A stretch of DNA of 64,000 bases. It comes from Dehalococcoidia bacterium. GTDB taxonomy: Bacteria > Chloroflexota > Dehalococcoidia > Lucifugimonadales > CBDEGW01. Shown here in pieces: positions 33,968 to 56,085 of this stretch. The stretch covers positions 464,218-528,217 of the forward strand of contig OZ250168.1 of the NCBI GenBank assembly GCA_965237935.1, in the 5' to 3' direction. Under the pieces are notes generated by a model. The model was given only the letters and a program-made list of their open reading frames with translations. It did no database searches and was not told the DNA's origin. The translations under genes were made by a program, and so were the position numbers. How positions within the stretch are numbered: position 1 is the first letter of the stretch; the number at the start of each line of letters is the position of its first letter.

Positions 33968-34007
33968 TGCGCTGCATCTTAACAAATCACGGCGAGGATA
34001 ATGACTC

Positions 34008-36455: not shown

Positions 36456-36477
36456 ATTAAGGTTTGGAAATGCCTAG

Positions 36478-37305: not shown

Positions 37306-37329
37306 GACTTATTCTGACCAGGAGCCCTA

Positions 37330-37935: not shown

Positions 37936-37947
37936 GACATGGCGACT

Positions 37948-37976
37948 TTGACATGGAAAAACGCGTGTGGTATCAT
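37948..37976 (+). promoter_or_regulatory. strong promoter upstream of the yacL-ispD-ispF-cysS unit
   Basis: TTGACA (37948..37953), 17-nt spacer, TATCAT (37971..37976) with an extended-10-like TG one nt upstream. Confidence 0.55.
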
Positions 37977-38140
37977 GGTTATGTAATTAAACCACCCTGC
38001 CTGCCGTCCTATAGTTCCGGGGCCTCCAAAGTATATTTACCATTTATGTGGGGAGCCTATGGTGAGGAAAATGCAGGGCAGGACAATTGGTATTATCCTT
38101 TTTTCCTATTGTCCAACGGGGGGTTGAGGAGGTGGAAACC

Positions 38141-39196: not shown

Positions 39197-39199
39197 TTC

Positions 39200-39922
39200 T
39201 TGAAGCCAGACCAGGGCACCGGCCCGGTCAGCTACCATGACCGTGTGGGCGCCGTTGTGGTGGCCGCGGGCAGCAGCCAACGCATGGAGGGAACAGACAA
39301 GACCTTTGCGCCGCTCCTGGGAAGACCCCTTCTTTTCTACAGCCTCATGTCACTCCACTCCTCCTCCCTGGTGAGCTACATTGTTCTGGTCCTGAGTCGA
39401 GATAACCTGGCTAAAGGCCGAGAGCTGGTCGAATCCAACCAGTGGGGCAAGGTCGATCAGCTGTGTACTGGAGGCCAGCGCCGCCAGGACTCGGTGAGCA
39501 ACGGGCTGCGTCATCTGAGCGACTGCGAGTGGGTGCTGGTACATGATGCGGCCCGGCCCCTGCTGGACGAAGGCATGATCCAACGCGGGCTCTCTGCGGC
39601 CCTGGAAGCGGGCGCAGCCGTGGCCGCCGTTCCAGTCAAAGATACTATCAAGGTAACGGACTCCCAGGGCCTGGTAGTGGACACGCCATCCAGGGACACA
39701 CTCTGGGCCGTCCAGACACCTCAAATATTCCGCAGAGACCTGCTGGAGAAGGCCCACCGCCGAATTAGTGAGACGGTAACCGACGACGCTCGAATGGTTG
39801 AGCTGATCGGGGGGCGGGTAAAGGTGTTCCACGGCTCCTACGATAACCTGAAAGTTACCACACCAGAGGACCTGACCATTGTTGAAGCCATCCTGGCTGC
39901 AAGGAGCTCGTTTCAGAGCTGA
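39200..39922 (+). CDS. ispD: 2-C-methyl-D-erythritol 4-phosphate cytidylyltransferase
   Basis: 240 aa. AVVVAAGSSQRM and VLVHDAARP motifs. The exact start is uncertain (TTG 39200 or GTG 39245). Confidence 0.85.
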   Translation: MKPDQGTGPVSYHDRVGAVVVAAGSSQRMEGTDKTFAPLLGRPLLFYSLMSLHSSSLVSYIVLVLSRDNLAKGRELVESNQWGKVDQLCTGGQRRQDSVSNGLRHLSDCEWVLVHDAARPLLDEGMIQRGLSAALEAGAAVAAVPVKDTIKVTDSQGLVVDTPSRDTLWAVQTPQIFRRDLLEKAHRRISETVTDDARMVELIGGRVKVFHGSYDNLKVTTPEDLTIVEAILAARSSFQS

Positions 39923-39991
39923 TCCTTCGGTCCCACCTCAGCGTGAGAGGCATCTATTGCCCAACTGAAGGCGGGGGTGCCAAAGTAACCG

Positions 39992-40474
39992 ATGTCTATT
40001 CGCACTGGATTTGGATACGACGTGCACGCCCTGGTGGAGGGTAGGCCCCTTATCCTGGGCGGCGTGGCCATCCCCTTTGAGAGGGGGCTGGCGGGCCACA
40101 GCGACGGCGACGTCCTCATGCACGCCATCATTGACGCCCTTCTTGGGGCAGCCTCTCTGGGAGACATCGGGGCCCACTTCCCCTCCAGCGATGAGCGCTA
40201 TCGAGACATCGCCAGCTCTCTTCTCCTGGAGGAGGTCAAAAAGTTCGTGGACCAAAATCAATGGCGTATCCTTCACCTCGATGCTACAATAGTCGCCGAA
40301 TTTCCCAAGGTAGGTCCCTACGTAAACCAGATGCGAGAGACCATCGCCAGACTCCTGGGCAAGGAGAAGGAGTCCGTCAACATCAAGGCCACCACCACAG
40401 ATGGCTTAGGCTTCACCGGCCGAGGTGAAGGCATCGCCGCCTACTGCGTCGCCACGCTGGAGGAGACGGCATGA
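39992..40474 (+). CDS. ispF: 2-C-methyl-D-erythritol 2,4-cyclodiphosphate synthase
   Basis: 160 aa. GFGYDVHAL .. GHSDGDVLMHAI motifs. Confidence 0.95.
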   Translation: MSIRTGFGYDVHALVEGRPLILGGVAIPFERGLAGHSDGDVLMHAIIDALLGAASLGDIGAHFPSSDERYRDIASSLLLEEVKKFVDQNQWRILHLDATIVAEFPKVGPYVNQMRETIARLLGKEKESVNIKATTTDGLGFTGRGEGIAAYCVATLEETA

Positions 40475-41838
40475 GGCTATACAATACCCTCTCAAGACAG
40501 AAGGAGGCGCTCACCTCCAGCGACGGCACGGTCAATATGTACGTCTGCGGCATTACGCCCTACGCCCAATCTCACATCGGCCATGCCATGTGTTATGTCG
40601 TCTTCGACGTCCTGAGGCGTTACCTGGAGTTCAAGGGGTTCCAGGTGCAACACGTGCAAAACTTCACCGATATAGACGACAAGCTCATCAATGGTGCTAA
40701 CCACCTGGGCATACCGGTGGAGGAGTTGGCGGAGCGATACATCGACGAGTATTTTCAGAATATGGACGCCCTCAATATAATGAGGGCCCACATCTATCCC
40801 AGGGCGACTCAGGAGATACCTGGGATCCTTAAAATCATTGGCTCTCTGGTGGAGAAGGGGTACGCCTATCCCTCCGATGGCGACGTTTATTACCGGGTCC
40901 AGAAGGCTCAGGGATATGGGAAGCTGGGACACCGCACCCTGGAGGGGATGATGGCCGGGGCCAGGGTAGAGCCCAGTGCCGCCAAAGAGCACCCCATGGA
41001 TTTTGCCCTGTGGAAGGGCTCGAAGCCAGGAGAGCCTTCGTGGGATAGCCCTTGGGGCAAGGGCAGGCCTGGATGGCATATCGAGTGCAGCGCCATGTCC
41101 CTGGAGTACATCGGCGCCACCGTGGACATCCACGGTGGCGGCCAGGACCTGATCTTCCCCCACCACGAGAACGAGATAGCCCAGAGCGAGGCTTACACCG
41201 GGATCGCTCCCTCCGTCAAGTTCTGGGTCCACAACGGCCTACTGCGCATGGGTGAGGACAAGATGAGCAAGTCCCTAGGCAACCTGGTGACAGTTCAGGA
41301 GGCCCTGGAACGCTACGGTCCTGATGCCCTTCGGCTCTTCTTCTTAAGCTCCCACTATCGCAGTCCTCTGACCTATTCCGAGGAGGCCATCGCGTCCCAG
41401 GAAAGGGCTGCGGAGCGCCTTCGTAACGCGGTGAGAGAGGTCACGCCCGAAGGCGATGATGCCCTGGACTCGATGCCCTATAGAGACCGCTTCCTGACCG
41501 CCATGGATGATGACCTGAACACCCCCCAGGCTTTGGCCTCCCTCTTTGACATGGCCCGAGATATCAACCGCGGCAAGGAGGAGGGTCGCAGCGTGAAGGA
41601 GGCTCAGGGGACCCTTAGGGACCTGGCTGGCCTCCTGGGCATAACCCTCACAGAAGCGGAGGCAGCCCACAAGAGGGACTCTGCTCCCTTCATCGAGCTG
41701 CTGGTGGAGACCAGGGAGACCTTGAGGACCGCCAAACGGTTCGATCTGGCAGACCTCATTCGGGACCGGCTGGCGGAGTTGGGAGTGGCCCTGGAGGACA
41801 CGCCCGGCGGCACCCTATGGAAGCTTACCCGCCCTTAG
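40471..41838 (+). CDS. cysS: cysteine--tRNA ligase
   Basis: 455 aa. HIGH motif (SHIGHAM) and KMSKS. 4-nt overlap with ispF. Confidence 0.95.
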   Translation: MRLYNTLSRQKEALTSSDGTVNMYVCGITPYAQSHIGHAMCYVVFDVLRRYLEFKGFQVQHVQNFTDIDDKLINGANHLGIPVEELAERYIDEYFQNMDALNIMRAHIYPRATQEIPGILKIIGSLVEKGYAYPSDGDVYYRVQKAQGYGKLGHRTLEGMMAGARVEPSAAKEHPMDFALWKGSKPGEPSWDSPWGKGRPGWHIECSAMSLEYIGATVDIHGGGQDLIFPHHENEIAQSEAYTGIAPSVKFWVHNGLLRMGEDKMSKSLGNLVTVQEALERYGPDALRLFFLSSHYRSPLTYSEEAIASQERAAERLRNAVREVTPEGDDALDSMPYRDRFLTAMDDDLNTPQALASLFDMARDINRGKEEGRSVKEAQGTLRDLAGLLGITLTEAEAAHKRDSAPFIELLVETRETLRTAKRFDLADLIRDRLAELGVALEDTPGGTLWKLTRP

Positions 41839-41920
41839 CCGTGGCGCAGTCTTTTATGCGTCTCTGCTATCCCTTTCGTAATACAGCCCTCAGCTATCTC
41901 CCGGTATTGGAGCTTGACCG

Positions 41921-43336
41921 ATGAAGGAACGCCTCGTCGAAGACCTGAAGGCCCTCCTGGATGGCGACTCCAAGGTGACCACTGCCCAGGAGGAGCTGGA
42001 GTTCTTCTCCGGCGATGCCCTGGGGGTCTATAGGGCCTTCCGTGCCAGGGAGAAACTGGACGCCAGGCCTGGGGTGGTGGTTCACCCCACTACCACGGAG
42101 GAGGTGTCCAGCGTCATGAGGCTGGCCAGCCAGAAAGGGGTCCCGGTGGTTCCTAGAGGCGGCGGCACCGGCGTAATGGGCGGCGCCGTCACCGTCGAGG
42201 GATGTATCGTGATAGACCTCACGGGCATGGACCGCATCAGGGATATCAGCAGGGAGGACAGGGCCGCCCGCGTAGAAGCGGGGGTGGTCCTACAGGAGCT
42301 GGAGGAGGCCCTGAACAGCGAGGGCTTGCTCTTGGGCCACGACCCCTGGAGCCTGCCCATCGCCACGGTGGGCGGGGCCATATCCACCGACGGCATGGGG
42401 TATAGAGCCGCCAAGTACGGCTCCATGGGCCAGCAGGTGCTGGGCCTTGAGGTGGTGCTGCCCAGCGGCGACGTGGTCACCACCCGAGAATTGCCCAAGC
42501 CCTTGGCGGGGCCATCCCTTCAGCAGCTCTTCATCGGCTCAGAGGGGACTCTGGGAATCATTACCAGCGCGATGGTTATGGCCTTCCCAATGCCCGAGGA
42601 GCGGATCATCAGAGCCATAGCCTTCCCCGACTTCGAGGCCGGCTTCCGGGCCGTCCAGGAGCTCTATGCCCGGGGCGTGATGCCGGCGATGGTCGATTAC
42701 GGCGAGGAGCCCCTGACAAGGGGGGAGGATGGCTCGGGCGGCGCCACTCTTTACCTGGGCTTCGAGGGTTTCCGGGAGATGGTGCGCGCCCAGGATAAGA
42801 GGACTACGAAGATATGCCAGACCCTGGGAGGCACCGACGAGGGGCAGGAGGAGGCCACGCATTTCTGGGAGACACGCCACGCCTCCGGCGAGAGGTATAA
42901 GCGAGAGGTGCTGGAGAGCCCAAGGCGCGGTGAGGCCCGCCGTAGTCGCTCCCGCTACCAGATGGACTACCTGCACGTGGCTCTGCCCGCTTCCAGGGTC
43001 CTGGAGTACAGAGGGCGCTGCCAGGAGATCCTGTCTGGGTACCCCATATCGGTGAGAGAGTGGTCCTTATGGGCCAGGCCTGAGTTCTTCTCCTTCCTCA
43101 TCGTCCCGGATGACTCTCTCGATGCCTCAGCCTCCGACGATATGGCCCAAGCAGTGGACCGGGTCCTTTCCCTGGCCCAAGACATGGGAGGCTCCATGGA
43201 ATACTGCCACGGTGTGGGGATCAAGTTTGCCCACCTCATGGAGAGGGAGCTGGGATCGGGCATGGGCCTACTGCGGCAGATCAAGAAGGCCCTGGACCCC
43301 AAGGGCATCCTGAATCCAGGGACTCTGAGACTGTAA
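41921..43336 (+). CDS. FAD-linked oxidase (GlcD/D-lactate dehydrogenase family)
   Basis: 471 aa. FAD_binding_4-type PRGGGTGVMGG and a C-terminal FAD-oxidase_C region. Confidence 0.8.
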   Translation: MKERLVEDLKALLDGDSKVTTAQEELEFFSGDALGVYRAFRAREKLDARPGVVVHPTTTEEVSSVMRLASQKGVPVVPRGGGTGVMGGAVTVEGCIVIDLTGMDRIRDISREDRAARVEAGVVLQELEEALNSEGLLLGHDPWSLPIATVGGAISTDGMGYRAAKYGSMGQQVLGLEVVLPSGDVVTTRELPKPLAGPSLQQLFIGSEGTLGIITSAMVMAFPMPEERIIRAIAFPDFEAGFRAVQELYARGVMPAMVDYGEEPLTRGEDGSGGATLYLGFEGFREMVRAQDKRTTKICQTLGGTDEGQEEATHFWETRHASGERYKREVLESPRRGEARRSRSRYQMDYLHVALPASRVLEYRGRCQEILSGYPISVREWSLWARPEFFSFLIVPDDSLDASASDDMAQAVDRVLSLAQDMGGSMEYCHGVGIKFAHLMERELGSGMGLLRQIKKALDPKGILNPGTLRL

Positions 43337-43351
43337 AACACGGAATAGCTG

Positions 43352-44182
43352 CTAGCCGCCCACCACCTCCACCATCTGCCCCACCTTCGCGCCCAGCATC
43401 GTCTGGGCATTGCCGTTCCTGACCGAGACCTCCAGATATCCGTGGCTCCCTACTATGGCCAGGAGCTCTTCCCCATGGACGTAGGAGGGGCTGATGCCCT
43501 GAATCATGCGTCCCGCCACTGCTATCCGTACTGCCCCTGCTGGTAGTCTATCGGCGGGGATGTTGCTGACCAGGTTTCCAAAGTGGTCTATGTGGATGAT
43601 GTGCCCCTCCAGCGCCTCCTCCTTCTCCACCGGGTCCGTCAGGTTCAGATAGACCAGCCTATCAACCCTCTCTCCCATCTCGTCAGGCGACCTCCCCTTG
43701 GAGAGGTGGGCGGCCACCGGGGCGAAGATATCCCTGCCGTGGAAGGTCTGGCTCACCGGATGCCGCCAAAAGTCGGGGTTGGTCAGGGCGAAGGCCGCGC
43801 AGGTGGAGGGCACCTGCACCTCCAAAGGGGCCAGAAACTCCTCCTGGTCTAGTCCTGTGGCCCCATTGGCTCTGAGCACGTAGGTCAGCAACCCATTGTC
43901 GGGGGCCAGGAACCAGGCGTCCTGGGTAGATAGCAGAATGGCCCTCCTGGAGGTGCCTACTCCCGGGTCCACAACGGCGATGTGTATGGAGCCCGGAGGG
44001 AAAAAGGGGTAGGAGGTCCCCAGCACGAAGGCGCCGTGGGCCACATCCTGGGGCGGCACGCTGTGAGAGACATCTACTAGGGAAACACCGAGGTTTATGC
44101 CCAGGATCACGCCCTTCATGGCGGCGACGTAGGCGTCCTGGCTGCCAAAGTCGGTGGTGAGAGTGATGATGGGACTACTCAT
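43352..44182 (-). CDS. SAM hydroxide adenosyltransferase family protein (DUF62 / SAM-dependent halogenase-like)
   Basis: 276 aa. IITLTTDFGSQDAYVAAMKGVI N-terminal signature. Confidence 0.8.
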   Translation of the reverse strand: MSSPIITLTTDFGSQDAYVAAMKGVILGINLGVSLVDVSHSVPPQDVAHGAFVLGTSYPFFPPGSIHIAVVDPGVGTSRRAILLSTQDAWFLAPDNGLLTYVLRANGATGLDQEEFLAPLEVQVPSTCAAFALTNPDFWRHPVSQTFHGRDIFAPVAAHLSKGRSPDEMGERVDRLVYLNLTDPVEKEEALEGHIIHIDHFGNLVSNIPADRLPAGAVRIAVAGRMIQGISPSYVHGEELLAIVGSHGYLEVSVRNGNAQTMLGAKVGQMVEVVGG

Positions 44183-44219
44183 TAGAATTTCTTCCCACCA
44201 ACCCTCGGATTGCGTCTTT

Positions 44220-44453
44220 CTAAAAGAGGCTCGGGCGAGATACGAAAAGGGCGCTCAGGATGGACAGCAGGATGAAAAGGCCCACCATGCCTATTGTGAA
44301 CTGAAATATGGTCTTTTCTATGCCTCTTCGGGACCGGAAGGAGGCCTCCGCCGAACCAAAGAAGCCAGAACCCTGGCCCTTGACCTGCATGAGGATGATA
44401 CCAATTACCATGGCGGCAACCAGGATTTGCGCAAAATTGAGAAAAGTCTCCAT
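44220..44453 (-). CDS. secG: preprotein translocase subunit SecG
   Basis: 77 aa, two TM helices. LMQVKGQGSGFFG loop typical of SecG. Confidence 0.8.
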   Translation of the reverse strand: METFLNFAQILVAAMVIGIILMQVKGQGSGFFGSAEASFRSRRGIEKTIFQFTIGMVGLFILLSILSALFVSRPSLF

Positions 44454-44492
44454 ACCTTAGTCTTCCATCATCTTTTCACCAAACAGTCCAAC

Positions 44493-45788
44493 CTAACCCG
44501 CCATTACTTTAGCCATATCTGGGTGGCCAGTCTTATTATAGCTATCATACAAGTCCATCAGCACCGATGCCAGCTTTTTGGGGTCGTGGTGCAAGCGGAA
44601 ATCCCTGTTCACCACGTCGGCTGTGACTACTGGAACCTTGCTATGGACGTCCCCGTCCAGCGGCACGGGCGAAGCTAGGAACTGGGGCCCCAGCGGAGCG
44701 ACGTTATCGTTGGCCAGTACGTAGTCCACTAGATTGGGGCCGGCGTGTCGCTGAAGGGCTTCCAGGTGGTCGGCCACGGAGAAGCCGTCGGTCTCCCCCT
44801 TCTGGGTGGCGACGTTGCAGACGAAGACTTTCATGGCCTGGGACCGACTGATAGCTGCCCCAATACCCTTGACCAGGAGGTTAGGTAGAATACTGGTGTA
44901 GAGGCTGCCCGGACCTATGATGATGAACTGAGCGTCGGCTATAGCCTGCACTGCGTCGGGATAAGCCTCCGCGTCGTCGGGCTCCAGGTACAGCCGCTTT
45001 ATCTTGCCTCCGCGCTCGGTGATACTGGACTCGCCCCGGACTATAGCTTCGTCGTCCATCTGGGCGGTGAGACTCATGCTGGCCAGGGTTGAAGGCAGAA
45101 TTTCACCCCGCACAGCCAGTACCCGGCTGGACTCATATATCGCCCTCTCAAAGCTGCCCGTGACCCCTGACATAGCCACTATGAAGAGGTTGCCAAAGCT
45201 GTGCCCCTCCAGCCCGGAACCTTTGCCAAACCGGTACTGGAAAAGCCTGGTGACCAGAGGCTCAGCGTCGGCCATAGCCACCAGGCAGTCCCGGAAGTCC
45301 CCAGGGGGAAGGATGCCCAGCTCCCGGCGCAGGCGTCCAGAGCTTCCCCCGTCATCGGCCACGGTGACGATGGCGGTGAGGTTGCTGGTGTGCTCCTTCA
45401 ATCCCCTCAGCAGAGTGGAGAGGCCCGTACCACCGCCGATGGCCACCACCAGAGGCCCCCTCTCGCGCTGGCGAAGGCTGTAGAGGGTGTGAGCCAGGCT
45501 GTCGCTACTGTGGGAGGATAGAAGCAGGGGGCCTACCGAGCGGTAGAAGCCGTAGGCGGCAACGCAGATGACCGCCAGCCCCAGAAGACCAAAAAGAAGG
45601 CCCTGGGCCCAATAGGGTAAAAGTTTGGGGAAAGGACTATCAAAGAAGCTGGTAAGAACGTACGCCACCCCCAAGGCAGCGACAACCAGCCCCACCCCTC
45701 CCAGGAGGAGCCATCGCTTGAACCGTAGGCCTGGATACAGCAGCCTAAGAGCGTCCTGGAGGCCAGAGCTTTGCTCCTTCAGGCTCAT
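44493..45788 (-). CDS. YvcK/CofD-family (gluconeogenesis factor-like) protein with N-terminal TM segments
   Basis: 431 aa. [18 protein letters not shown] signature. Confidence 0.8.
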
Positions 45789-47281
45789 CTCTCCACCATC
45801 TGGGAGAGCTTCTCCGTGATGAGGTCGTTTACCAGACCGGGGTCGGCCTTGCCCCTGGTCAGCTTCATTACCTGGCCCACCAGGAATTTAGCGGCGGTCT
45901 CCTTGCCGCCCAGGTAGTCCTGGACCGCCTGGGGGTTGCCGGCGATGGCTTCATCAACGGCGCTGGAGATGGCCCCTGTGTCCCGCAACTGGACGAGGCC
46001 CTTCTCCTCCACCACCAGGGACGGCCTGTGGCCGGTGTGGAACATCTCCTCGAAGACCGTCTTGGCCATGGTGGTGCTGAGGGTCCCGGAGTCCACCAGA
46101 TCCAGCAGCTCCACCAGATGGGGAGGTTGGACCTTCAACTGGTCCGTCTCCTGGCCGGTGGCGTTCATAAGCCGGGCCATCTCTCCCAGCATCAAGTTGG
46201 CGATGGCCTTGTATCTTCCACTATTGGCCGCCTGGCCGGACCTCCTATCGTTCTCTTCGGTGCACGTCTCAAAGAAGTCCGCCATTGCTTTGCTCAGGGT
46301 TAGCTGTCGAGCGTCGTACTCCGGCAAGCCATAATCCTCCACGAGGCGCCTACGACGCGCGTCCGGCAGCTCTGGTAGGGCTGCCCTTAGCTCCTCCACC
46401 CACTGGCGGGAGATGACAAGAGGAGGCAGGTCCGGCTCCGGGAAGTATCGATAGTCGTGAGCATGCTCCTTGGAGCGCTGCGATACTGTGACGCCCCTTT
46501 CCTCCACCCATCCCCGAGTCTCCTGAACAACGCGCTCCCCCTTCTCCAAGACCTTCTTCTGGCGCTGCACCTCGTACTCCAGGGCGCGGAACACCGAGCG
46601 GAAGCTGTTCATGTTCTTGACTTCAGCCCTAGTGGCCAGCTCTTGAGTTCCCCTGGGACGTATGCTGATGTTGGCGTCGCAACGGAAGCTACCTTCCTCC
46701 ATATTGCCAGTGCTGACCTCCAGATACCGGAGAATGGACCGCAGCTTGATCAGGTACTGGCGAGCCTCCTCTGGAGAGCGGAGGTCAGGTTCGCCGACGG
46801 TCTCCATCAGTGGCACGCCCGCTCGGTTTACATCCATCAGGGTATAGCTCTCGCCGCTGCCGTCGGCCCTGTGGAGGAGCTTGGCCACGTCCTCCTCTAG
46901 ATGGACCCTGGTGATGCCCACCCGCTTTACCTGGCCGTCCACCTCGATGTCTATCCAGCCGTTTTTGGCTATCGGCTCATCGTACTGGGAGATCTGATAC
47001 CCCTTCATCAGGTCCGGGTAGGGGTAGTTCTTGCGGTCGAACTTGGTCTGCTCCGCGATGGCGCAGTTCAGGGCCAGGCCCGTCATAATGGTGTACTCCA
47101 CGGCCCGCTTGTTGATGACGGGTAGCACTCCCGGCATTCCCAGGCACACGGGACAGACGCGGGTGTTGGGCGGAGCGTTCTGGTAGTCGGCGCCGCAGGA
47201 GCAGAACATCTTGCTCTGAGTCAGTAGCTGGGCATGGACCTCCAGCCCTATGACAGTTTCGTATTCAACCGCTACTACCAT
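45785..47281 (-). CDS. gatB: Asp/Glu-tRNA amidotransferase subunit B
   Basis: Start moved to ATG 47281 ([19 protein letters not shown] is the canonical GatB N-terminus). The 40 codons upstream in the track ORF look non-coding. Confidence 0.9.
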
Positions 47282-47523
47282 TGCTACAGTCGCCGCCCTT
47301 GGGTAAACTCGTCTAAGAATAAAGGCTCTGCTGCCTAGTATAACAATGGGTATATACAGGGACAAGCTGGCTGACCGCTCCCGAAAAAACATTCCGTCCA
47401 TAGATCCTCTGCCCCCTGGGGTCTAAGGCTGAAATCGACCGAACAATCCCTGAGCTCTGCGTTGTCCAGGGCTTCCCCTTGTGTTATATTGTGACAAAGT
47501 TATCAAACCCGGAGGCTCGTCCC

Positions 47524-48018
47524 TTGGCCACCGAGAGCGCAACCCTGAGGCTAAAGGCCAGAGAGGCCCTGGCGGCCCAGAAGCAGCCCAGCGTCACACC
47601 CTTGTCCTCCCTTCTGGCCGTACAGGACGCCCTGGGGTACCTGCCGGTGGAGGCCGTAGAAGAGGTAGCCGCCTTCACCAGCTCCACCATCAACGATGTT
47701 TGGGGAGTGGCCTCCTTTTACCTTAACTTCCGCTTTACACCGGCCCCCGAGCATACCGTAGAGGTCTGCTGGGGACCCACCTGCCACCTGATGGGCGCTC
47801 CCCGCATTCTGGAAGCCTTCCAGGAGGTCCTGGGGGTAACCGGCGAAAGTGAGACCAGCGATGGCAAGTTCGCCCTCAAGTACAACACCTGCCTCGGGGC
47901 CTGCTCACAGGCTCCCGCTATCAGCATCGACCACCACCTAGTCGGAAGGGTGGAGCCTCGACGGATCGTCGAGGGCCTGGCTAGAAGCTGGGCGCTACCC
48001 TTTATCAGAGGGAAGTAA
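47524..48018 (+). CDS. NuoE/FdsG-like 2Fe-2S subunit
   Basis: Start moved to TTG 47524 (GGAGG 8 nt upstream); the track start 47479 overlaps a -10-like TGTGTTATATT. Motifs CWGPTCHLMG .. CLGACSQAP. Confidence 0.75.
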   Translation: MATESATLRLKAREALAAQKQPSVTPLSSLLAVQDALGYLPVEAVEEVAAFTSSTINDVWGVASFYLNFRFTPAPEHTVEVCWGPTCHLMGAPRILEAFQEVLGVTGESETSDGKFALKYNTCLGACSQAPAISIDHHLVGRVEPRRIVEGLARSWALPFIRGK

Positions 48019-49748
48019 TGGCGACCTACCTGGAGCTAAAGTCCAGGGCCGACGAGACCTGGCAAGGCCTGATCCAGGGAACTACTCCCTGGATACGGGT
48101 GGGCACCGCCATCTGTGGCCAGGCGGCGGGAGCCCCAGAGGTGGTGGAGGCTCTCCGCGCTGAGCTGGAGAGACGAGGCATTCAGGCCCTGGTCACCGAG
48201 GTGGGCTGCCTCGGACTCTGCTATGCGGAGCCCCTGGTGGACATCCTGAAGCCGGGTAGCTCCCGTATCCTCTTCAAAAACGTCACCCCAGAGATGGTCC
48301 CCCAACTCGTCGAGTCCTATCTGGTCAACGACTCTCCACCTGCCGAATGGGCCCTGGGGCATCTGGGAGAGGGGAGGAATTACGGCGTACCGGACCTGGA
48401 GCAGATGCCTGTCATGAAGCTGCAGCTCCGAATCGCCCTGCGCAACGCCGGCCATATCGATCCCGGCGACATCTACCAGTACATCGCCAACGGGGGGTAC
48501 GCCGGCCTGAACAGGGCCCTCCTTCACATGGAGCGGGAGCAGGTAGTGGAGGAGGTCACCAACTCTGGACTGCGAGGCCGCGGAGGGGCGGCCTTCCCTA
48601 CGGGCACCAAGTGGAGCTTCCTGGTCCGGGCTCAGGAGCCTGTGAAATACATTCTCTGCAACTGCGAGGAGGGCGACCCCGGCGCCTTTAATGACAAAGG
48701 AATTCTGGAGAGCGATCCCCATACTCTCCTGGAGGGCATGATTATCGGAGGCTATGCCACCCTGGCCACCAAGGGATACGTCTTCATACGCCACGGCCAC
48801 GACGGCCCAATAGAGCGCACCCGCATAGCCATACAGCAGGCATACGAGGCCGGCCTCCTGGGAGAAAACATCCTGGACAGCGGCTTCAGCTTCGACATTG
48901 AAGTGGCCCTGACGGGGGACTCCTACGTCTCAGGAGAGGAGACGGCCCTCATGGAGGCCATCGAGGGGAAGCGCGCCATGCCCCGGACCAGACCTCCCTT
49001 CCCGGCCCAAGCGGGCCTGTGGGGCAAGCCCAGCAACATAAACAACGTCAAGACCCTTGCCTACATCCCTGAGATCGTTTCGAGGGGGGCCCAGTGGTTC
49101 TCCGACATCGGCGTAAACCGCAGCAAGGGGACTGCCATCCTGTGCCTTACGGGGAAAGTCGCCAGACCCGGCCTCTACGAGGTCGCCATGGGAATAACTC
49201 TGCGCCAGGTCATCGATGAAATCGCCGGGGGTGTTCCCAACGGCAAGAGCCTGAAGCTCCTCCAGACGGGAGGGCCCCTGGGAGGCGTCCTGAACGCCGA
49301 GATGGCTGACGTGCCCCTGGACTTCGAGGAGATGGCCCAGGCGGGCGCTATCCTGGGCTCCGGCGGCATAATCGTCGCCGACGAGGACACCTGCGCCGTG
49401 GACTTTACCAGGGTCCTGGTGACCTTCTGCCAGTACGAGTCCTGCGGCAAGTGCTTCCCCTGCCGCCTGGGCTTTACCCATATGACGGAGATCCTGGAGC
49501 GGATATGTCGCGGCGAAGCCCGGCCCAGAGACCTGGACCTTATGCCAGGCATAGGCCAGAGCATAGCCGGTGGCTCCCTCTGCGGCCACGGGCAGCTCGG
49601 CTACAATCCCGTGAGGTCGGCTCTGCAGTATTTCGCCGAAGACTTTAGGGTCCACGTGGAGGAGGGACGCTGTCCCACCGGAAGCTGTGGCGGCCCCATC
49701 ATCGCCCCAGCCCGGACCAGGCCTCAACCGGTGATCGTCGCAACTTAA
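48018..49748 (+). CDS. NuoF/FdsB-like NADH-binding FMN/4Fe-4S subunit with N-terminal thioredoxin-like domain
   Basis: 576 aa. GLRGRGGAAFPTG, CNCEEGDPGAF, SCGKCFPCR motifs. The N-terminal domain keeps only three Cys. Confidence 0.9.
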   Translation: MATYLELKSRADETWQGLIQGTTPWIRVGTAICGQAAGAPEVVEALRAELERRGIQALVTEVGCLGLCYAEPLVDILKPGSSRILFKNVTPEMVPQLVESYLVNDSPPAEWALGHLGEGRNYGVPDLEQMPVMKLQLRIALRNAGHIDPGDIYQYIANGGYAGLNRALLHMEREQVVEEVTNSGLRGRGGAAFPTGTKWSFLVRAQEPVKYILCNCEEGDPGAFNDKGILESDPHTLLEGMIIGGYATLATKGYVFIRHGHDGPIERTRIAIQQAYEAGLLGENILDSGFSFDIEVALTGDSYVSGEETALMEAIEGKRAMPRTRPPFPAQAGLWGKPSNINNVKTLAYIPEIVSRGAQWFSDIGVNRSKGTAILCLTGKVARPGLYEVAMGITLRQVIDEIAGGVPNGKSLKLLQTGGPLGGVLNAEMADVPLDFEEMAQAGAILGSGGIIVADEDTCAVDFTRVLVTFCQYESCGKCFPCRLGFTHMTEILERICRGEARPRDLDLMPGIGQSIAGGSLCGHGQLGYNPVRSALQYFAEDFRVHVEEGRCPTGSCGGPIIAPARTRPQPVIVAT

Positions 49749-49764
49749 TACCAAGAGAGTTAGT

Positions 49765-52533
49765 ATGCCTGAGGACATCACCCTCACTATAGACGGCAAG
49801 GAAGTCAAGACCCAGCCCGGCGTTCCGGTGCTTCAGGCGGCCCTGGACGCCGGAATCTACATACCCTACTTATGCTACTACCAAGGCCTGAAACCCTACG
49901 GCGCCTGCCGTATGTGCGTCGTGGAGGTGGAGAACCAGAGAGGCACCCCCGCCTCCTGCACCCTGCCCGCCGCCGACGGTATGGTCGTCAACAGCCTCGG
50001 CCAGGAGGTCGTCCAGCTCAGGCGCGGCGTCATGGAGCTGCTCTTATCGGAGCATCCCCACGGCTGCCTTACCTGCCATCGCGTAGACCTCTGCGGCCCT
50101 CAGGATATCTGTCTGCGGCACGTTTCGGTCACGGACCGCTGCGTCTCCTGCCCCAAGAATGAGCGTTGCGAGCTGAAGGACACGGTTCGCCACCTGGAAA
50201 TGGACCTGACCTCCCCCTTCACCTACAACTACCGCAACCTGCCCAGAGAGGTGCGGGACCCCTTCTACGACCGGGACTACAACCTCTGCATCGTCTGCGC
50301 TCGCTGCGTTCGGGCCTGCGAAGAGGTAAGGGGCGACAACGCTATCACCATGGTGGAGCGCTCCGGCGTAGCACTGGTGGGCACCTCCTTCGGCACCTCC
50401 CTTCTGGAGTCGGGCTGCGAGTTCTGCGGGGCCTGCATCGACGTTTGCCCCACGGGGGCCCTGGTGGAGCGGGACTACAAGTGGGAGAAGGCGGCCAGAG
50501 CCGTCACCACCATCTGCCCTCACTGCCCCGTGGGATGCCAGATGACCATCGAGGTGAACCAGCGGGAGAAGCTGATTCGCACCATCCCGGACCCAAACGG
50601 TCCCTCCAACCAGGGACAGGCCTGCTTCAAAGGCAAGTTCGGTATGGACTTCGTCAACCACCGCCAGCGGCTAAAGACTCCCCTAATTCGCCGCAACGGC
50701 TCCCTGGAGCCATCCACCTGGGATGAAGCCTTGGACTACTTGGCCCAGAAGCTGGCGGAGTACAAAGGCGATGCCTACGGCATAATCCTATCGCCTAGGG
50801 GCACCAATGAAGACAGCTACGCCGCCCAGAAGTTCGCCCGGGCGGTCATGGGCACCAACAACATAGACATCTCCTCCAACACCCGCCCGGAGTTGGTGGA
50901 GCCCCTCGGCGAAATGCTTGGCTATCAGGCCGCCACTAACCCCATATGGGAGCTGGAAAAGTCGGGCTGTGTGATGGTGATGGAGAGCAATGTCACCGAG
51001 GAGCATAACGTGGCCGCCGTCCCCATTAAGAAGGCGGTCCAGAAGGGCCTCAAGCTCATCGTCATCGACAGTAGAGAGACGGAGCTGACGCGCTACGCCC
51101 ACATCTGGCTGCGCCCCCGACCGGGTACCGACGTCACCCTGCTAGGCGGCATTCTCAAAGTGATAGTAGACGAGTCTCTGGAGGACGGTGAGTTCGTATC
51201 GCAGCACTGCCAGAACGAGGACGCCCTGAGGCAAAGCTTGCAGAGCGTTGACCTGGTAAAGGTCGAGGAGAGGACAGGCGTCCCCCAGGCCCTGGTTCAA
51301 GAGGCGGCCCGGATGCTGGCCCAGAACGGCCCCACCTCCATCCTCTACGCCCTGGACACCCTGCCCTCCGAAGCGGCGTCCCAATGTGTCAAGGCGCTGG
51401 CCGACCTGGCCCTTCTGACTGGCAACCTAGGGAAGCCTTCGTCCGGGCTGTACCCCCTCATTCCGGGAGCCAACGAGCAGGGGGCCAAGGACGTGGGCGC
51501 CGTTCCTCACCTGCTGCCAGGGTACCAGCCCCTTGTTAGCCCCCAAGCCCGCAGCACCTTCGAAGAGGCGTGGGGAGTCCCTCTGCCCGCCGGCAAAGGC
51601 CTACCTCTGGGCGAGATGGTCCAGGCAGCCGGAGAGGGCCGTATAAAGGCGCTGCATCTGCTGGGAGACAGTCCAAGTTTCTCCAACGGCGAGATCGAGG
51701 ATGTTTTAGAAGCCTTCAAAAAGGTTGAATTCCTTATTATGCATGACAACTTCAGGAGCGAGCTGGTGGAGATGGCCCACGTGGTGCTGCCCTCGGCCAC
51801 CTTTGCGGAGAAGGATGGGACCTACACCAACATGGAGCGCAGGGTGCAGCTACTACATCAGGCCTTGAAGCCCAAGAACGGGGAGATGCCCGAGTGGGAG
51901 ATTTTCGGCCTCCTGGCCCAGAGGATGGGTTACGCCGGCCTTCAGTACCTGAGCTCCTCTGAAGTGATGGGTGAGATCGCTGGACTAATGCCCATGTACG
52001 CGGGCGTATCTCACCAGCGGCTGGAGTCCGGCGGTATCCAGTGGCCATGCACCGGCCCGGAGGACAGCGGAACCCCCATCCTCTACGCCAGTGATGAAAA
52101 TGGCTGGAAAGCTACCATGAGTCCACTAGGCCAACGGGAAGAAAATCCAGATATCCTAGACCCCCAGTATCCCCTCGTTCTAGTCCGGGGCCGGGTCCTC
52201 CTTCAGCCGGACAGGGATATAGAGGTGATCAAGGACAACGGCGCCAACGCAATAAAGCGGGAGGAGATCATCGAGCTACACCCCTCAGACGCCGCCTCCC
52301 TGGGAATCGCCGATGGAGACCTAATAGAGGCCGTTTCAGAGGAGGAGCGCTTCAGGGGAGTGGCTCGCTTGAGGAGTCCCCACCCTGGGGTGGTCTCGGC
52401 GACCTACCTCTTCGGACAGTTGGCATCCGAGCTGGAGAAGAGCACCGAACCCGACCCCATGCTCAAGGTTCCCGGCCTGCCTCTCCTGACCGTCAGGCTG
52501 GAGAAGGTGTTGGAAAGCGCAGCCGCCGATTGA
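49765..52533 (+). CDS. FdsA/NuoG-like molybdopterin-oxidoreductase-family large subunit lacking the Cys/Sec-His pair
   Basis: 922 aa. N-terminal 2Fe-2S, several 4Fe-4S motifs, CPHCPVGC MopB cluster. At the FDH active-site position it reads GTNNIDISSNTRPELVEPLG instead of ..CAR(V/L)(C/U)H.. Confidence 0.85.
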   Translation: MPEDITLTIDGKEVKTQPGVPVLQAALDAGIYIPYLCYYQGLKPYGACRMCVVEVENQRGTPASCTLPAADGMVVNSLGQEVVQLRRGVMELLLSEHPHGCLTCHRVDLCGPQDICLRHVSVTDRCVSCPKNERCELKDTVRHLEMDLTSPFTYNYRNLPREVRDPFYDRDYNLCIVCARCVRACEEVRGDNAITMVERSGVALVGTSFGTSLLESGCEFCGACIDVCPTGALVERDYKWEKAARAVTTICPHCPVGCQMTIEVNQREKLIRTIPDPNGPSNQGQACFKGKFGMDFVNHRQRLKTPLIRRNGSLEPSTWDEALDYLAQKLAEYKGDAYGIILSPRGTNEDSYAAQKFARAVMGTNNIDISSNTRPELVEPLGEMLGYQAATNPIWELEKSGCVMVMESNVTEEHNVAAVPIKKAVQKGLKLIVIDSRETELTRYAHIWLRPRPGTDVTLLGGILKVIVDESLEDGEFVSQHCQNEDALRQSLQSVDLVKVEERTGVPQALVQEAARMLAQNGPTSILYALDTLPSEAASQCVKALADLALLTGNLGKPSSGLYPLIPGANEQGAKDVGAVPHLLPGYQPLVSPQARSTFEEAWGVPLPAGKGLPLGEMVQAAGEGRIKALHLLGDSPSFSNGEIEDVLEAFKKVEFLIMHDNFRSELVEMAHVVLPSATFAEKDGTYTNMERRVQLLHQALKPKNGEMPEWEIFGLLAQRMGYAGLQYLSSSEVMGEIAGLMPMYAGVSHQRLESGGIQWPCTGPEDSGTPILYASDENGWKATMSPLGQREENPDILDPQYPLVLVRGRVLLQPDRDIEVIKDNGANAIKREEIIELHPSDAASLGIADGDLIEAVSEEERFRGVARLRSPHPGVVSATYLFGQLASELEKSTEPDPMLKVPGLPLLTVRLEKVLESAAAD

Positions 52534-52567
52534 GGGTCCATAACTGGAGGTCAAAGCCGATTCGTCT

Positions 52568-53329
52568 ATGACGAGCGTACCTGAGACGAGACCCCGAGAG
52601 AACACACAGCCGACGCCGCCCAGATTGGCCAAAGCGACGGTGGCGGCGAGAAAGAACCTGACCGAGGACCTGTGGGCCATGTGGCTCAAGCCGGACATCC
52701 CCTATCCCTTCAAGGCGGGCCAGTACTGCACCATAGGCCTGGACGGCATAGAGAGAGCCTACTCCATAGTCTCAGCTCCTCATGAGCCTGAGCTGGAGCT
52801 TTTCATAGGGCTGATTGAACACGGGCATCTGACTCCTAAGCTTTGGCCCCTGGATGTGGGAGACCTGGTCTCCCTCCGTCCCAGGGCTAAAGGCATCTTC
52901 ACCTTTGACCCTGCGCTCCCCAACCATCTGATGGTATGCACAGTAACGGGAATCGCTCCTTTCGTAAGCATAATACGTGACTATATCCACACAGGGATGA
53001 AGGGCCACAGGTTCTACCTGCTTCAGGGCTCCAGCTACGTGGACTACTTCGCCTACGACCGGGAGATGGCGACTCTGTCGGCGGAGTACCCGGAGCTTAT
53101 CACGTACGTTCCCGCTATCAGCAGGCCCAACGACGAGAGAAACCGAGGCTGGTCCGGCGCTACGGGCCGCGTGAACAACATCGTAGATGGTCTCGCCGAG
53201 AAGTGGGGCCTGGATAGCCAGTCTACCCTGGTCTATCTGTGCGGCAACCCCGGGATGATACAGGAGGCCAAGAAGACCTTGGCCCCCAAGGAATTCAGGA
53301 TCAGAGAGGAGCGCTTCTGGAAGGAGTAG
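52568..53329 (+). CDS. ferredoxin--NADP(+) reductase-type flavoprotein
   Basis: 253 aa. RAYSIVS (RxYS FAD motif) and MVCTVTGIAPF NAD(P) motif. Confidence 0.85.
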   Translation: MTSVPETRPRENTQPTPPRLAKATVAARKNLTEDLWAMWLKPDIPYPFKAGQYCTIGLDGIERAYSIVSAPHEPELELFIGLIEHGHLTPKLWPLDVGDLVSLRPRAKGIFTFDPALPNHLMVCTVTGIAPFVSIIRDYIHTGMKGHRFYLLQGSSYVDYFAYDREMATLSAEYPELITYVPAISRPNDERNRGWSGATGRVNNIVDGLAEKWGLDSQSTLVYLCGNPGMIQEAKKTLAPKEFRIREERFWKE

Positions 53330-53426
53330 GCTGGCCCCTCTCTACCGTCCGTCCCGTCCAGTGGCCTCTTTAAGGCGTCTTTTATTCACTCTTGACAAAC
53401 CCGCCCAAGGCCACTACCCTTCCGGT

Positions 53427-53455
53427 TATATTGGTCTGACCATCTGACCAATATA
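53427..53455. promoter_or_regulatory. perfect 10-bp inverted repeat upstream of the TauE gene
   Basis: TATATTGGTC-N9-GACCAATATA. The centre contains the tandem TCTGACCA TCTGACCA. It ends 17 nt before the ATG. Confidence 0.45.
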
Positions 53456-53472
53456 GTTAGGTAGGAAGAGCA

Positions 53473-54285
53473 ATGGTCATAGCGGTTCTGGCCGCGGGAG
53501 GGCTGGTGGCCGGCACCTACGGCAGCCTCATTGGGGCGGGCGGCGGCTTCATAATGGTCCCCCTGCTGCTGTTCCTATTTCCAGACGAAAGCCCCGCCGT
53601 CATAGCGGCCACCTCACTCTTTGCTGTGCTATTCACCGGCACCTCCTCCGCCGCCGCCTACGCCTGGCTCAGAAGGATCGACTATAAAGCGGGGAGCCTT
53701 CTGGGGGCCGTGACCGTTCCCGGCGCTATTCTGGGAGTTCATCTGGTATCCCTAGTCCCCAGGGCAGCTTTTGAGATGGCGATGGGGTCTTTACTCATAT
53801 TCCTTGCCAGCTATAGCTTCATAAGAGCCCAGATGAGCCGGGGGCGTCCATTTCTGATTCATGACGTTTTTAGCTATAGAACCCTGGTAGACCGCGCGGG
53901 GACTGCCTTTGTCTACCCGGTAAGGGCCATAATGTGGTCATCGGTGGCCTTGGTAGCTGGATTTTTATCCAGCATGATGGGCATAGGCGGGGGTCTTCTA
54001 CAGGTGCCCATTCTGGTCTACATGCTTAGCATGCCCATCCAGGTAGCCGTCGCCACCTCCCAGTTTGCACTAACCGCCACCGCGCTAACAGGCACCATCA
54101 CCCATCTCACCGCCGGCAACCTAAGCATAGGGTGGTGGAATGTGAGCGCCCTGACTATCAGCGTCGTAGTCGGCGCTCAGATAGGCGCTCGACTCTCCAC
54201 CAGGTTCAGTGGCTCACGGGTGACCCAGCTTCTATCCGGGGGACTGACGGTGGTTGGCGCGCGGCTGCTCATAGCCGCAGTCTAA
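53473..54285 (+). CDS. TauE/SafE-family anion exporter
   Basis: 270 aa, about 8 TM helices with internal duplication and glycine-rich GGG motifs. Confidence 0.75.
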   Translation: MVIAVLAAGGLVAGTYGSLIGAGGGFIMVPLLLFLFPDESPAVIAATSLFAVLFTGTSSAAAYAWLRRIDYKAGSLLGAVTVPGAILGVHLVSLVPRAAFEMAMGSLLIFLASYSFIRAQMSRGRPFLIHDVFSYRTLVDRAGTAFVYPVRAIMWSSVALVAGFLSSMMGIGGGLLQVPILVYMLSMPIQVAVATSQFALTATALTGTITHLTAGNLSIGWWNVSALTISVVVGAQIGARLSTRFSGSRVTQLLSGGLTVVGARLLIAAV

Positions 54286-54350
54286 AGTCTCACTCTCCTC
54301 CGCAGTAAGCTAGGAGCGAATGATGTTTTTGGCCGTGTCTATATGATAGA

Positions 54351-54365
54351 ATTGCCGTCGGCAAT
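54351..54365. promoter_or_regulatory. palindrome just after a TATGAT box, upstream of the LLM oxidoreductase
   Basis: ATTGCCG-T-CGGCAAT, 3 nt after TATGAT (54342..54347). Confidence 0.3.
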
Positions 54366-54395
54366 GGGAAGGATCGTACCAGCGCCAGAGGAGAG

Positions 54396-55559
54396 TTGAT
54401 GAAGTTTAGCACCCTGTACGCCGGATACATAGACATGGAGGACCTGGGTGAGCACGGCGCCAAGGTCGGTGAGCGCTGGTTTTCCAACGAACAACTGGCC
54501 ACAGTGTACGACAAGAGCCTGGTCCTGGCTCAGGCCTGCGAGGAGCTGGGCTTCGACACCCTTTGGCTGGCGGAGCACCACTTCCAGCCCGAGGGCTACG
54601 AGGTCATCCCCAACCTCCTGATGCTGGCCCTTTACCTGGCCGGCCATACCAAACGAATAGAATTTGGCTGTGGTTTCAACATCACTACCATGTGGCACCC
54701 GCTGCGATTGGCCGAAGACTACGCCATGGCTGATATCCTCACCAAGTGGCGGGTGCTCTTTGGAATTGGTCGGGGCTACCACACCCGCGAGGTGGAGACC
54801 TTCGGCGTGCCAATGATGGACCAGGAGACCAATCGGGAGATCTTCGAAGAGCAGTTGGAGATCATCTTCAAGGCCTTGCAGGAGGAGAAGTTCTCCCACC
54901 AGGGTAAACACTACACCATTCCCCCTCATGTGCCTTATCGGAACTACATGCTGAAGGAGATCTCCGTGGTTCCCCGGCCCATGCACCTCTTCGAGTGCTG
55001 GCAGCCCATAGTGAGCGGCAATCCCCGGGGGCTGGAGTTCATGGCCAAGCATGGTATCAAAGGAATAGTGGGCAACGCCCTGCCTGAGATGGTGGAGGAG
55101 CGATGGCAGCAGTTCAAGGCCGCCTACACTAAGCAAGGCGTTGACCTGAAGCCCGGCGAGCGCTTCGGCGTGATCATCCCCTCCTACCTGGCAGACACCC
55201 AGGAGCAGGGTATCAAGGAGTTCCGCCCTGTTTACCAGGAGTATCAGAAATTCTTCGGCCCCTTTGGCTTCATTGGAAAGCTCACTGACGAGCAACTCAA
55301 GGCTCTGGACACCAAGGGTGGCTGGAAGGCGGCAGGTGTCCGCACCTTAGAGGAAGCCATTGCAATAGGCAGCCATTACGTGGGCCATCCCGACGGGCTT
55401 ACGGACAAAATTAAAGGAATCAAGGAGAAGTATCCGTACCTGGAGCATATCTTCTTCGGCTTTACCATGTCCGTTTCCCAGTCGGTTATGCTGCAACAGC
55501 TAACCAGGTTCTCTGAGGAAGTGATGCCAGCCTTCAAGAGTGTTCAGGTGCCTGCTTAG
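54396..55559 (+). CDS. LLM-class (luciferase-like) flavin-dependent oxidoreductase
   Basis: 387 aa. GFDTLWLAEHHF signature. Confidence 0.85.
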   Translation: MMKFSTLYAGYIDMEDLGEHGAKVGERWFSNEQLATVYDKSLVLAQACEELGFDTLWLAEHHFQPEGYEVIPNLLMLALYLAGHTKRIEFGCGFNITTMWHPLRLAEDYAMADILTKWRVLFGIGRGYHTREVETFGVPMMDQETNREIFEEQLEIIFKALQEEKFSHQGKHYTIPPHVPYRNYMLKEISVVPRPMHLFECWQPIVSGNPRGLEFMAKHGIKGIVGNALPEMVEERWQQFKAAYTKQGVDLKPGERFGVIIPSYLADTQEQGIKEFRPVYQEYQKFFGPFGFIGKLTDEQLKALDTKGGWKAAGVRTLEEAIAIGSHYVGHPDGLTDKIKGIKEKYPYLEHIFFGFTMSVSQSVMLQQLTRFSEEVMPAFKSVQVPA

Positions 55560-55629
55560 GAGCGTTAGCAGACAGCACCCATCCAGACACCTGAGCTAAT
55601 CCAAGAAGTTCACTAAGGGAGGTAACACC

Positions 55630-56085
55630 ATGGTAGAAGTTGGACAGCCGGCCCCAGACTTCACGCTGGCGGCCCATACCGGAGACAACGTCACTCTCAG
55701 CGACTACAAGGGCACTAAGAACGTGGTGCTCCACTTCCACGTGATGTCCTTCACAGGTGGTTGAACCTATCAGGTATCCGGGTTCCGGGTATTCAACAAC
55801 CAGTTCCAGGAGAAGGATACGCAGGTCTTGGGGATAAGCGTCGACAGCCGCCCCGTCCAGGCCGCCTGGTGCCAGTCTCAGGGAGGCGTATCATATCCCG
55901 TCCTGGCCGACTTCCATCCCAAGGGGAAGGTCGCCGAAGCCTTCGGTGTGTTCAACGACGAGCGGGGTACCAGCAGAAGGTCCGTCTTCATCATCGATAA
56001 AGAGGGCATCGTCAGGTACAAGCGCGTCTACGACCAGGGCCTGCCGGACCCCCAAGAGATTCTGGCAGAGGTTAATAAGCTCTAA
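55630..56085 (+). CDS. Bcp/PrxQ-type peroxiredoxin with in-frame TGA (55762..55764) at the peroxidatic position; probable selenoprotein
   Basis: AGGGAGG then ATG 55630. MVEVGQPAPDFTL..VVLHFHVMSFTGG[TGA]TYQVSGFR..VLGISVDS..RRSVFIIDKEGIV. The same frame is continuous with track ORF 55828..56085; 151 codons in total. Confidence 0.75.
55773..55793 (+). promoter_or_regulatory. SECIS-like hairpin
   Basis: GGUAUCCGG-GUU-CCGGGUAUU: 9 pairs including 3 G-U, starting 8 nt after the TGA. The apical G/U residues lie about 20 nt from the UGA. Confidence 0.55.

Follow-up and report, generated by a model that had tools for sequence, protein, structure and literature searches.

An in-frame TGA at the active site of an AhpE-like peroxiredoxin gene in Dehalococcoidia very probably encodes selenocysteine

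The DNA analyzed here, referred to as the window, is a stretch of 64,000 nucleotides (nt) of contig OZ250168.1 (assembly GCA_965237935.1, positions 464,218 to 528,217 of the forward strand) from a Dehalococcoidia bacterium of the Chloroflexota. On its plus strand, at positions 55630-56085, lies a peroxiredoxin gene that is interrupted by an in-frame TGA codon and that, judging from comparative sequence analysis, very probably is decoded into a functional enzyme with selenocysteine (Sec) at residue 45. Direct reading of the sequence places the start at ATG 55630, preceded with a 7-nt spacer by the Shine-Dalgarno (SD)-like sequence AGGGAGG (55616..55622). The first 44 codons (55630..55761, translated as MVEVGQPAPDF...HFHVMSFTGG) encode the N-terminal part of the protein and already contain H37, V38, and T42 of the active-site motif H-V-x-x-F-T-G-G-U. 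They are followed by the TGA (55762..55764), which translation, the alignment with AhpE, and the corresponding column of the orthologues mark as the putative Sec codon U45, then by 106 codons of the C-terminal part (55765..56082) and the true stop codon TAA (56083..56085). The whole gene thus comprises 151 codons including the TGA. An initial annotation, made from the letters of the sequence alone, had described a Sec-containing peroxiredoxin of the Bcp/PrxQ type at this place, and the start, the SD-like sequence, the TGA, and the stop all lie where it had put them.

Gene callers do not recognize this gene as one unit. A mechanical list of open reading frames (ORFs) holds a 44-amino-acid (aa) ORF (55630..55764) and an 85-aa ORF beginning at TTG 55828, and the gene calls of near-identical public contigs show the identical split into 44 aa and 85 aa, the very misannotation that had been foreseen. 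The initial annotation had also stated that the downstream half has no start of its own; no SD-like sequence indeed precedes position 55828, and the codon, a TTG, is that of the Leu in the stretch VLGISVDS. When the TGA was translated as Cys, a Pfam search returned a single AhpC-TSA domain (PF00578) covering residues 4-130 and profile positions 1-123 of 124 with an E value of 1.1e-35. This match runs across the TGA; therefore, the two called ORFs are halves of one domain, and the assignment of the 151 codons to a single peroxiredoxin is upheld. In a protein search, many close relatives were only 83-104 aa long and covered the C-terminal 55-66% of the query, and full-length relatives were found that carry a W at the TGA column (FTGGWT). 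Every database copy that we inspected was miscalled in one of three ways: as pieces of 44-45 aa and 83-104 aa, as the C-terminal piece alone, or as a translation in which TGA stands for Trp. Positions 55630-56085 are one intact gene that is routinely split by gene callers.

Orthologues were collected with one genome per species, which yielded 80 loci with 52-71% protein identity; 79 of them are titled as Dehalococcoidia, SAR202, or Chloroflexota metagenome-assembled genomes (MAGs), and one, L046, as Armatimonadetes. The column of the peroxidatic residue is TGA in all 80 orthologues and TGC or TGT in none, and four independent contigs nearly identical to the window carry the TGA as well. Homologues at a greater distance (P0019, P0041, P0052, P0116, and others) have Cys at this column, so that the alignment to Cys-containing relatives, which the initial annotation had proposed, spoke in favor of its reading of the codon. 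The sole Cys form within the Sec clade is L112:521-979 (protein P0001), with TGC at 653-655 where L042 has TGA. The hairpin downstream of this codon in L112 is nearly identical to that of L042, and L112 looks like a very recent TGA-to-TGC (Sec-to-Cys) switch, or a variant, with a now unnecessary structure resembling a Sec insertion sequence (SECIS). Having kept the hairpin, L112 was uninformative as a negative control. A scan of metagenome contigs with a single protein gave one close relative (L085); the other matches were distant Cys forms and were not used as structural controls.

The pattern of substitutions was the same on both sides of the TGA in kind. Pairwise divergence at codon positions 1, 2, and 3 amounted to 0.29, 0.22, and 0.63 upstream of the TGA and to 0.35, 0.19, and 0.64 in the distal downstream part. 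Between the window and its nearest relative, L113, which is 94% identical with 21% synonymous divergence, the ratio of nonsynonymous to synonymous substitution rates (dN/dS) was 0.14 upstream of the TGA and 0.07 over the 106 downstream codons (15.5 synonymous and 4.5 nonsynonymous differences). The codons lying between the TGA and the called internal starts are kept in frame as T-x-Q-V-S-S-F-R. Both halves of the gene are under purifying selection, i.e., both are translated, and the low downstream dN/dS argues that the read-through still works in the lineage of the window.

To which peroxiredoxins the protein is related was examined by structure and model searches. The seven best matches in the PDB were all AhpE of Mycobacterium tuberculosis (Rv2238c; 104-111 bits, E = 5e-31 to 7e-29), and the alignment extended from end to end, with U45 falling on Cys45 of the FTGIC motif, which we take to be the peroxidatic Cys of AhpE. 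The initial annotation had located the TGA on the peroxidatic Cys, and this alignment agrees. The next family scored 76 bits; 2-Cys peroxiredoxins matched at 2.6e-20 and Bcp at 1.7e-16 to 7e-13. All NCBIfam models stayed below their cut-offs: PrxU (NF040737) reached 76.9 of 270 bits over model positions 35-170 of 233, Bcp (PRK09437) 61.5 of 140 bits, and PrxQ (NF053650) 38.5 of 260 bits. By whole-sequence similarity, the protein is therefore AhpE-like and neither a Bcp/PrxQ protein nor a PrxU equivalog, and this comparison gives no support to the Bcp/PrxQ label of the initial annotation (E = 5e-31 for AhpE versus 2e-16 for Bcp, with the Bcp and PrxQ models far under their cut-offs). Only the local motif G-C/U-T-x-Q-x-x-x-F-R resembles Escherichia coli Bcp and plant PrxQ, and the Bcp/PrxQ proteins share a similarly small size with the protein described here.

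AhpE (PDB entries 1XXU, 1XVW, and 4X0X) is a one-Cys, mycoredoxin-dependent enzyme that shares with the protein of the window the F-T-G-x-C/U site, an aligned Arg, the length (153 versus 151 residues), and the lack of a conserved resolving Cys; identity to the 153-aa mycobacterial peroxiredoxin P0116 is about 42%. The two differ in that AhpE has Cys in place of Sec, F-P where the clade of the window has H-[IVL], and C-Q-G-E...L-R where that clade has U-T-x-Q...F-R. To our knowledge, mycothiol and mycoredoxin are not expected in Chloroflexota, and the reductant is therefore probably other than that of AhpE.

Residues of the active site were counted over 77 distinct clade members. The position eight residues before the Sec (U-8) is His in 77/77, U-7 is I in 40, V in 35, and L in 2 and is never P, and U-3 is T in 77/77; the site reads F-T-G-G-U-T-x-Q, and positions +7 and +8 are occupied by F and R. 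Arg117 (55978-55980) is invariant and aligns with the Arg in the ANRGTF stretch of AhpE, and it is presumably the catalytic Arg. Compared with the canonical motif P-x-x-x-T-x-x-U, the clade lacks the Pro at U-7 and retains T, U, and Arg. This Pro of Sec-peroxiredoxins has been described as 'highly conserved' (PMC13188914); in the clade of the window, I, V, or L follows the invariant His instead. The site without Pro is a variant of the motif that leaves the fold and the position of the Sec unaffected. The Pro at U-7 is kept in all Cys homologues that we inspected. It is also kept in P0033 (YPKDWTFTW) and in P0028, a peroxiredoxin-glutaredoxin fusion (FFPQAFTPVW), both with W at the catalytic column, and from their sequences these two may represent other Sec-peroxiredoxin clades in a TGA=Trp translation. 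A second Cys is not conserved in the clade: 21 of the 77 members have no Cys at all, 13 have one at U+4, and a resolving Cys of the Bcp type at +5 is likewise not conserved among the 77. The enzyme would therefore be of the one-Sec type and need an external reductant. The presence of peroxiredoxin-glutaredoxin fusions among the Cys homologues (P0018, P0035, P0050, and P0051) suggests that the reductant of the wider family may be of the glutaredoxin type.

The RNA just 3' of the UGA was then considered across the family. Folds computed sequence by sequence shared a hairpin that begins at about +13 and spans approximately +13 to +52 after the UGA. In its lower stem, GUCUCCUCG (the codons of V-S-S) pairs with CGAGGAGA (the codons of F-E-E), and beyond an internal loop, the upper stem is formed by UUCCGN (the codons of F-R) and a partner stretch in which the amino acids vary while complementarity is kept. 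Over 83 genes, the mean folding energy of 45-nt segments dropped from about -9 along the gene to -17.0 kcal/mol at +9 to +12, and 36 of the 83 genes had their global minimum there. An ungapped alignment of 78 sequences (A2) was evaluated with an explicit two-stem pair model, which gave a covariation score of 0.229 versus 0.132 +/- 0.010 for shuffled alignments (reached in 0/500 shuffles), and every slid register scored lower. Compensatory changes were seen at pairs 21-51 (CG 54, UA 16) and 24-48 (GC 43, AU 9) and further at 23-49 (CG 60, GC 7) and 18-54 (CG 58, UA 6). With the protein held fixed, synonymous resampling gave a null mean of -10.6 kcal/mol for the minimum free energy, compared with the observed -17.0 kcal/mol, and 73 of the 78 sequences were more stable than their own null; as these covariation and resampling statistics count kindred sequences as independent, their p-values are overstated. 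Divergence at third codon positions was 0.50 at +3 to +92 and 0.63-0.64 elsewhere. The family thus has a conserved SECIS-like element just 3' of the UGA, with compensatory changes.

In the window itself, RNAfold predicted a local hairpin at 55773..55793 on the plus strand, GUAUCCGG-GUU-CCGGGUAU, as the candidate apical stem-loop of a SECIS. It consists of 8 Watson-Crick or G-U pairs (55773/4..55792/3) and an optional ninth pair, G-U, and its GUU loop (55782-55784) corresponds to G21 U22 U23 counted from the U of the UGA, i.e., it is 20 nt away; outside this hairpin, GGUGGUUGA is predicted to pair with UCAACAACC. Compared with synonymous resamples, the hairpin was unusually stable (-9.9 versus -2.5 +/- 2.0 kcal/mol, above 99.6% of them, p ~0.004). 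The stretch homologous to the two-stem hairpin of the family, as placed by alignment A2, is 55775..55813 (lower stem 55775-55782 with 55806-55813). Hairpins of the consensus type are present in the relatives that come next, L115 (74%) and L116 (71%), and the sequence of the window matches this type only in part; the lineage of the window has therefore remodeled the element to a shorter hairpin. The 9-bp hairpin of the initial annotation exists, with its loop 20 nt from the UGA, but it is specific to this lineage, and the element of the family is the longer two-stem hairpin.

Sec machinery was searched for by tblastn with E. coli SelA, SelB, and SelD as queries. SelA matched only L010 and L117, and the SelB matches were only to EF-Tu-type GTPase domains. 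The Chloroflexota MAG L010 has selA (L010:11336-12450; TIGR00474, 491.7 bits at a cut-off of 267.9) at a distance of 5 kb on the downstream side of the peroxiredoxin orthologue, and on a complete 2.34-Mb Dehalococcoidia chromosome (locus L117), selA (L117:10001-11353) lies 7.3 kb downstream of the split peroxiredoxin gene; in both, AMP-binding and HMGL-like genes stand between the orthologue and selA. No selB, selD, or tRNA-Sec gene was found within 10 kb in these two loci or in any locus DNA searched, and ARAGORN detected no tRNA-Sec in the window and 1.09 Mb of orthologue loci. An Rfam scan of the window at gathering thresholds gave no match. A second interrupted gene was found in L116, the relative of the window's organism with 71% identity. 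It belongs to the PrdB/GrdB family (L116:874-1848, minus strand), contains an in-frame TGA (FLAST-TGA-PLCNRS), and is matched across the TGA by TIGR01918 ('reductase selenoprotein B') with 81.5 bits at a cut-off of 65.45; publicly, it is called as pieces of 209 aa and 93 aa. On this evidence, it is a candidate second selenoprotein. Chloroflexi selenoproteins were already counted in 2006 (PMC1794560), and BSepDB places two MAGs of Dehalococcoidia, which carry 49 and 46 selenoprotein genes, among the ten bacteria richest in selenoproteins (PMC13326102). We presume that selA, selB, selC, and selD are present in the genome from which the window derives.

Several other explanations of the interrupted frame had to be weighed against Sec decoding. 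A nonsense mutation in a decaying former Cys-peroxiredoxin, or a TGC or TGT misread in sequencing or assembly, would be a small step, as TGA is one base from either codon and the close homologue L112 does have TGC. Decay of this kind was looked for, and we saw neither frameshifts nor additional stop codons; the part of the gene beyond the TGA has a dN/dS of 0.07-0.2, and the same codon recurs in all 80 orthologues, whose genomes belong to different species and were assembled independently, and in the four near-identical contigs. A genome-wide reassignment of TGA to Trp (table 4) or Gly (table 25) has in its favor the W shown at this column by some public TGA=Trp calls (P0002, P0003, P0006, and P0007). 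TGA, however, serves as an ordinary stop, as the initial annotation had observed: of the 51 long ORFs in the window that do not overlap, 13 end in it, the genes of 922 aa and 538 aa being two of these, and among the orthologue stops, all at the common C terminus (TAG in 49, TAA in 21, TGA in 10), there are 10 genes in which TGA is read through at codon 45 and terminates translation approximately 107 codons later. P0002 and P0003 pass a second W beyond the usual C terminus of the family and run on into junk sequence and therefore are products of a TGA=Trp table. Moreover, an enzyme with Trp or Gly as its peroxidatic residue would be catalytically dead. The conservation of the TGA together with its use as a stop in orthologues and window therefore excludes that the codon is a sequencing error, that the gene is a pseudogene, and that the code is changed throughout the genome, and we accord both decay or error and reassignment a negligible probability. 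The in-frame TGA is a local recoding and not a sign of a variant code.

That the gene might truly be split, with a 44-residue peptide and a separately started C-terminal part, is suggested by the downstream start codons that callers find, such as TTG 55828. These internal starts are not homologous between orthologues (MGISVDS, MENRRF, MSVDS, and MTERQF), TTG 55828 lacks an SD-like sequence, and the 21 codons that separate it from the TGA are conserved as in-frame protein sequence; moreover, neither piece would contain the peroxidatic residue. We consider a split gene highly improbable, if slightly less so than decay or reassignment. Somewhat more room, though still very little, is left for a programmed read-through of the UGA without Sec, in which a near-cognate or suppressor tRNA would insert Trp or Cys with stimulation by the hairpin. 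In its favor, both the Sec at residue 45 and the Sec machinery of the window's genome are predictions from relatives and from the alignment. Against it stand the position of the UGA, which coincides with the column of the redox-active Cys in a family that has known Sec forms, the selA gene near the orthologue in two relatives, the selenoprotein richness of the class, and the inactivity expected of a Trp enzyme; in addition, bacteria are not known to us to have a system dedicated to decoding UGA as Cys.

Sec decoding has its own difficulties, and these lie in the hairpin and in the machinery. RNAalifold found no single consensus structure for the 78-sequence alignment, because the upper-stem register differs between subclades, and the dependence among the sequences inflates the family statistics given above. 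The window, L113, and L114 form 6 of the 8 lower-stem pairs of the family hairpin and only 3 contiguous upper-stem pairs. Their local hairpin did not differ significantly from dinucleotide shuffles of a 76-nt stretch (z = -0.34), it is not the most stable stretch of the gene in a 30-nt stability scan, and it lacks covariation support because only the close relatives L113 and L114 (94%) share it and are identical to the window there. As to the machinery, no homologue of SelA, SelB, or SelD (tblastn) and no tRNA (ARAGORN) was found in the 64-kb window, and none of the 120 SelA matches listed was on the window's own contigs. All of these observations weigh against Sec decoding and were taken into account when we judged it very probable.

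If the codon is decoded as Sec, expression could proceed as follows. The ribosome would initiate at ATG 55630, and with the UGA in the A site, a stem-loop about 9-12 nt downstream would recruit the complex of SelB, GTP, and Sec-tRNA(Sec). The recruiting element would be the two-stem hairpin of about 40 nt in most orthologues and the 8-9 bp hairpin with its G-U loop in the lineage of the window. Sec would be inserted at U45, and translation would continue to TAA 56083. In the protein, the U45 selenolate, positioned by T42 and R117, would attack the peroxide and be converted to the selenenic acid, which a thiol partner would reduce; the enzyme would thus act as a one-Sec peroxiredoxin with an external reductant, possibly glutaredoxin- or thioredoxin-like. 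We infer the identity of the inserted residue, the binding of SelB to the hairpin, and the identity of the reductant from sequence comparisons.

The loop of the E. coli fdhF SECIS carries G23 and U24. The fdhF type shares with our gene a stem-loop within the coding region directly 3' of the UGA, and in the window a G-U in the loop lies about 20 nt away. The two have no common primary sequence, and in contrast to the fdhF type, the element of the family is a two-stem hairpin in which the upper-stem register and the loop vary by subclade, with the upper stem swapped for a short local hairpin in the lineage of the window. As for the protein, peroxiredoxins with a TxxU site (PF00578) are a verified prokaryotic selenoprotein family (PMC13188914), and passages of the same work cite Sec-peroxiredoxins with this site as known since PrxU of Eubacterium acidaminophilum. 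The initial annotation had drawn the comparison with PrxU, which holds for the existence of such a family and not for equivalence with PrxU. Common to the known Sec-peroxiredoxins and the protein of the window are the AhpC/TSA fold, the T-x-x-U arrangement with Sec in place of the peroxidatic Cys, a UGA followed by a stem-loop, and frequent misannotation as fragments; PrxU differs in length, its model having 233 positions versus the 151 residues found here, and NF040737 stays under its cut-off.

Other places in the window and in the related loci were viewed as well. The ORF pair at 38087-39922 (plus strand), a 369-codon ORF ending in TGA and a 240-codon ORF in the same frame one codon on, was tried as a recoding site and rejected: it translates to a PIN/TRAM membrane protein and then IspD, with IspF next at 39992, and these are ordinary adjacent genes. 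The remaining same-frame continuations beyond TGA in the window translate to junk sequence. At 47479-52533 (plus strand), there is a cluster of NADH-dehydrogenase-like and molybdopterin oxidoreductase genes, with 2Fe-2S thioredoxin-like, 51-kDa subunit, and 922-aa molybdopterin domains by Pfam calls on L001. The 922-aa molybdopterin gene runs without interruption to a TGA stop; should its product be a formate dehydrogenase, this enzyme would not be of the Sec type. In L116, the gene of the glycine-cleavage P-protein subunit (GDC-P, L116:6913-8252) is likewise called in two parts (234 aa and 211 aa), which overlap by one base in different frames, and this suggests a frameshift, either an assembly error or genuine, and not an interruption by TGA. 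The direct flanks of the peroxiredoxin gene in the window, a luciferase-like oxidoreductase gene and a GYD gene, are common only to the 94% relatives. Two genes farther on, both on the minus strand, neighbor the Sec-peroxiredoxin more widely: a Methyltransf_28 (MidA-like) gene (56448-57785) in 46 orthologous loci and a citrate synthase gene (58037-59173) in 43.

Sec-peroxiredoxins with TxxU and selenoprotein-rich Dehalococcoidia are already known, and catalogues such as BSepDB probably hold these genes already; our understanding of Sec decoding or of peroxiredoxin chemistry is unchanged. Our literature search found no work naming selenoproteins together with SAR202 and no description of an AhpE-like, Pro-less Sec clade. 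We therefore put forward only tentatively, and with somewhat less than even confidence, that the genes form an undescribed, essentially Sec-only, AhpE-like clade that is confined to Dehalococcoidia, SAR202, and related Chloroflexota, lacks the Pro that is elsewhere universal, and has a plastic recoding element. Three points are of modest interest: an active site without its Pro, a recoding hairpin that is plastic in evolution, and a misannotation that is systematic. The analysis adds a widespread, well-supported Sec-peroxiredoxin clade on the AhpE-like branch and provides approximately 80 orthologous genes in which a recoding hairpin within the coding region shows clear compensatory evolution. 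If the clade is indeed Sec-only, it would offer a natural series for the remodeling of coding-region SECIS elements and for the relaxation of active-site constraints upon the change from Cys to Sec. Because miscalling recurs throughout the public data, functional surveys of marine and groundwater Chloroflexota overlook this abundant antioxidant enzyme or see it truncated.

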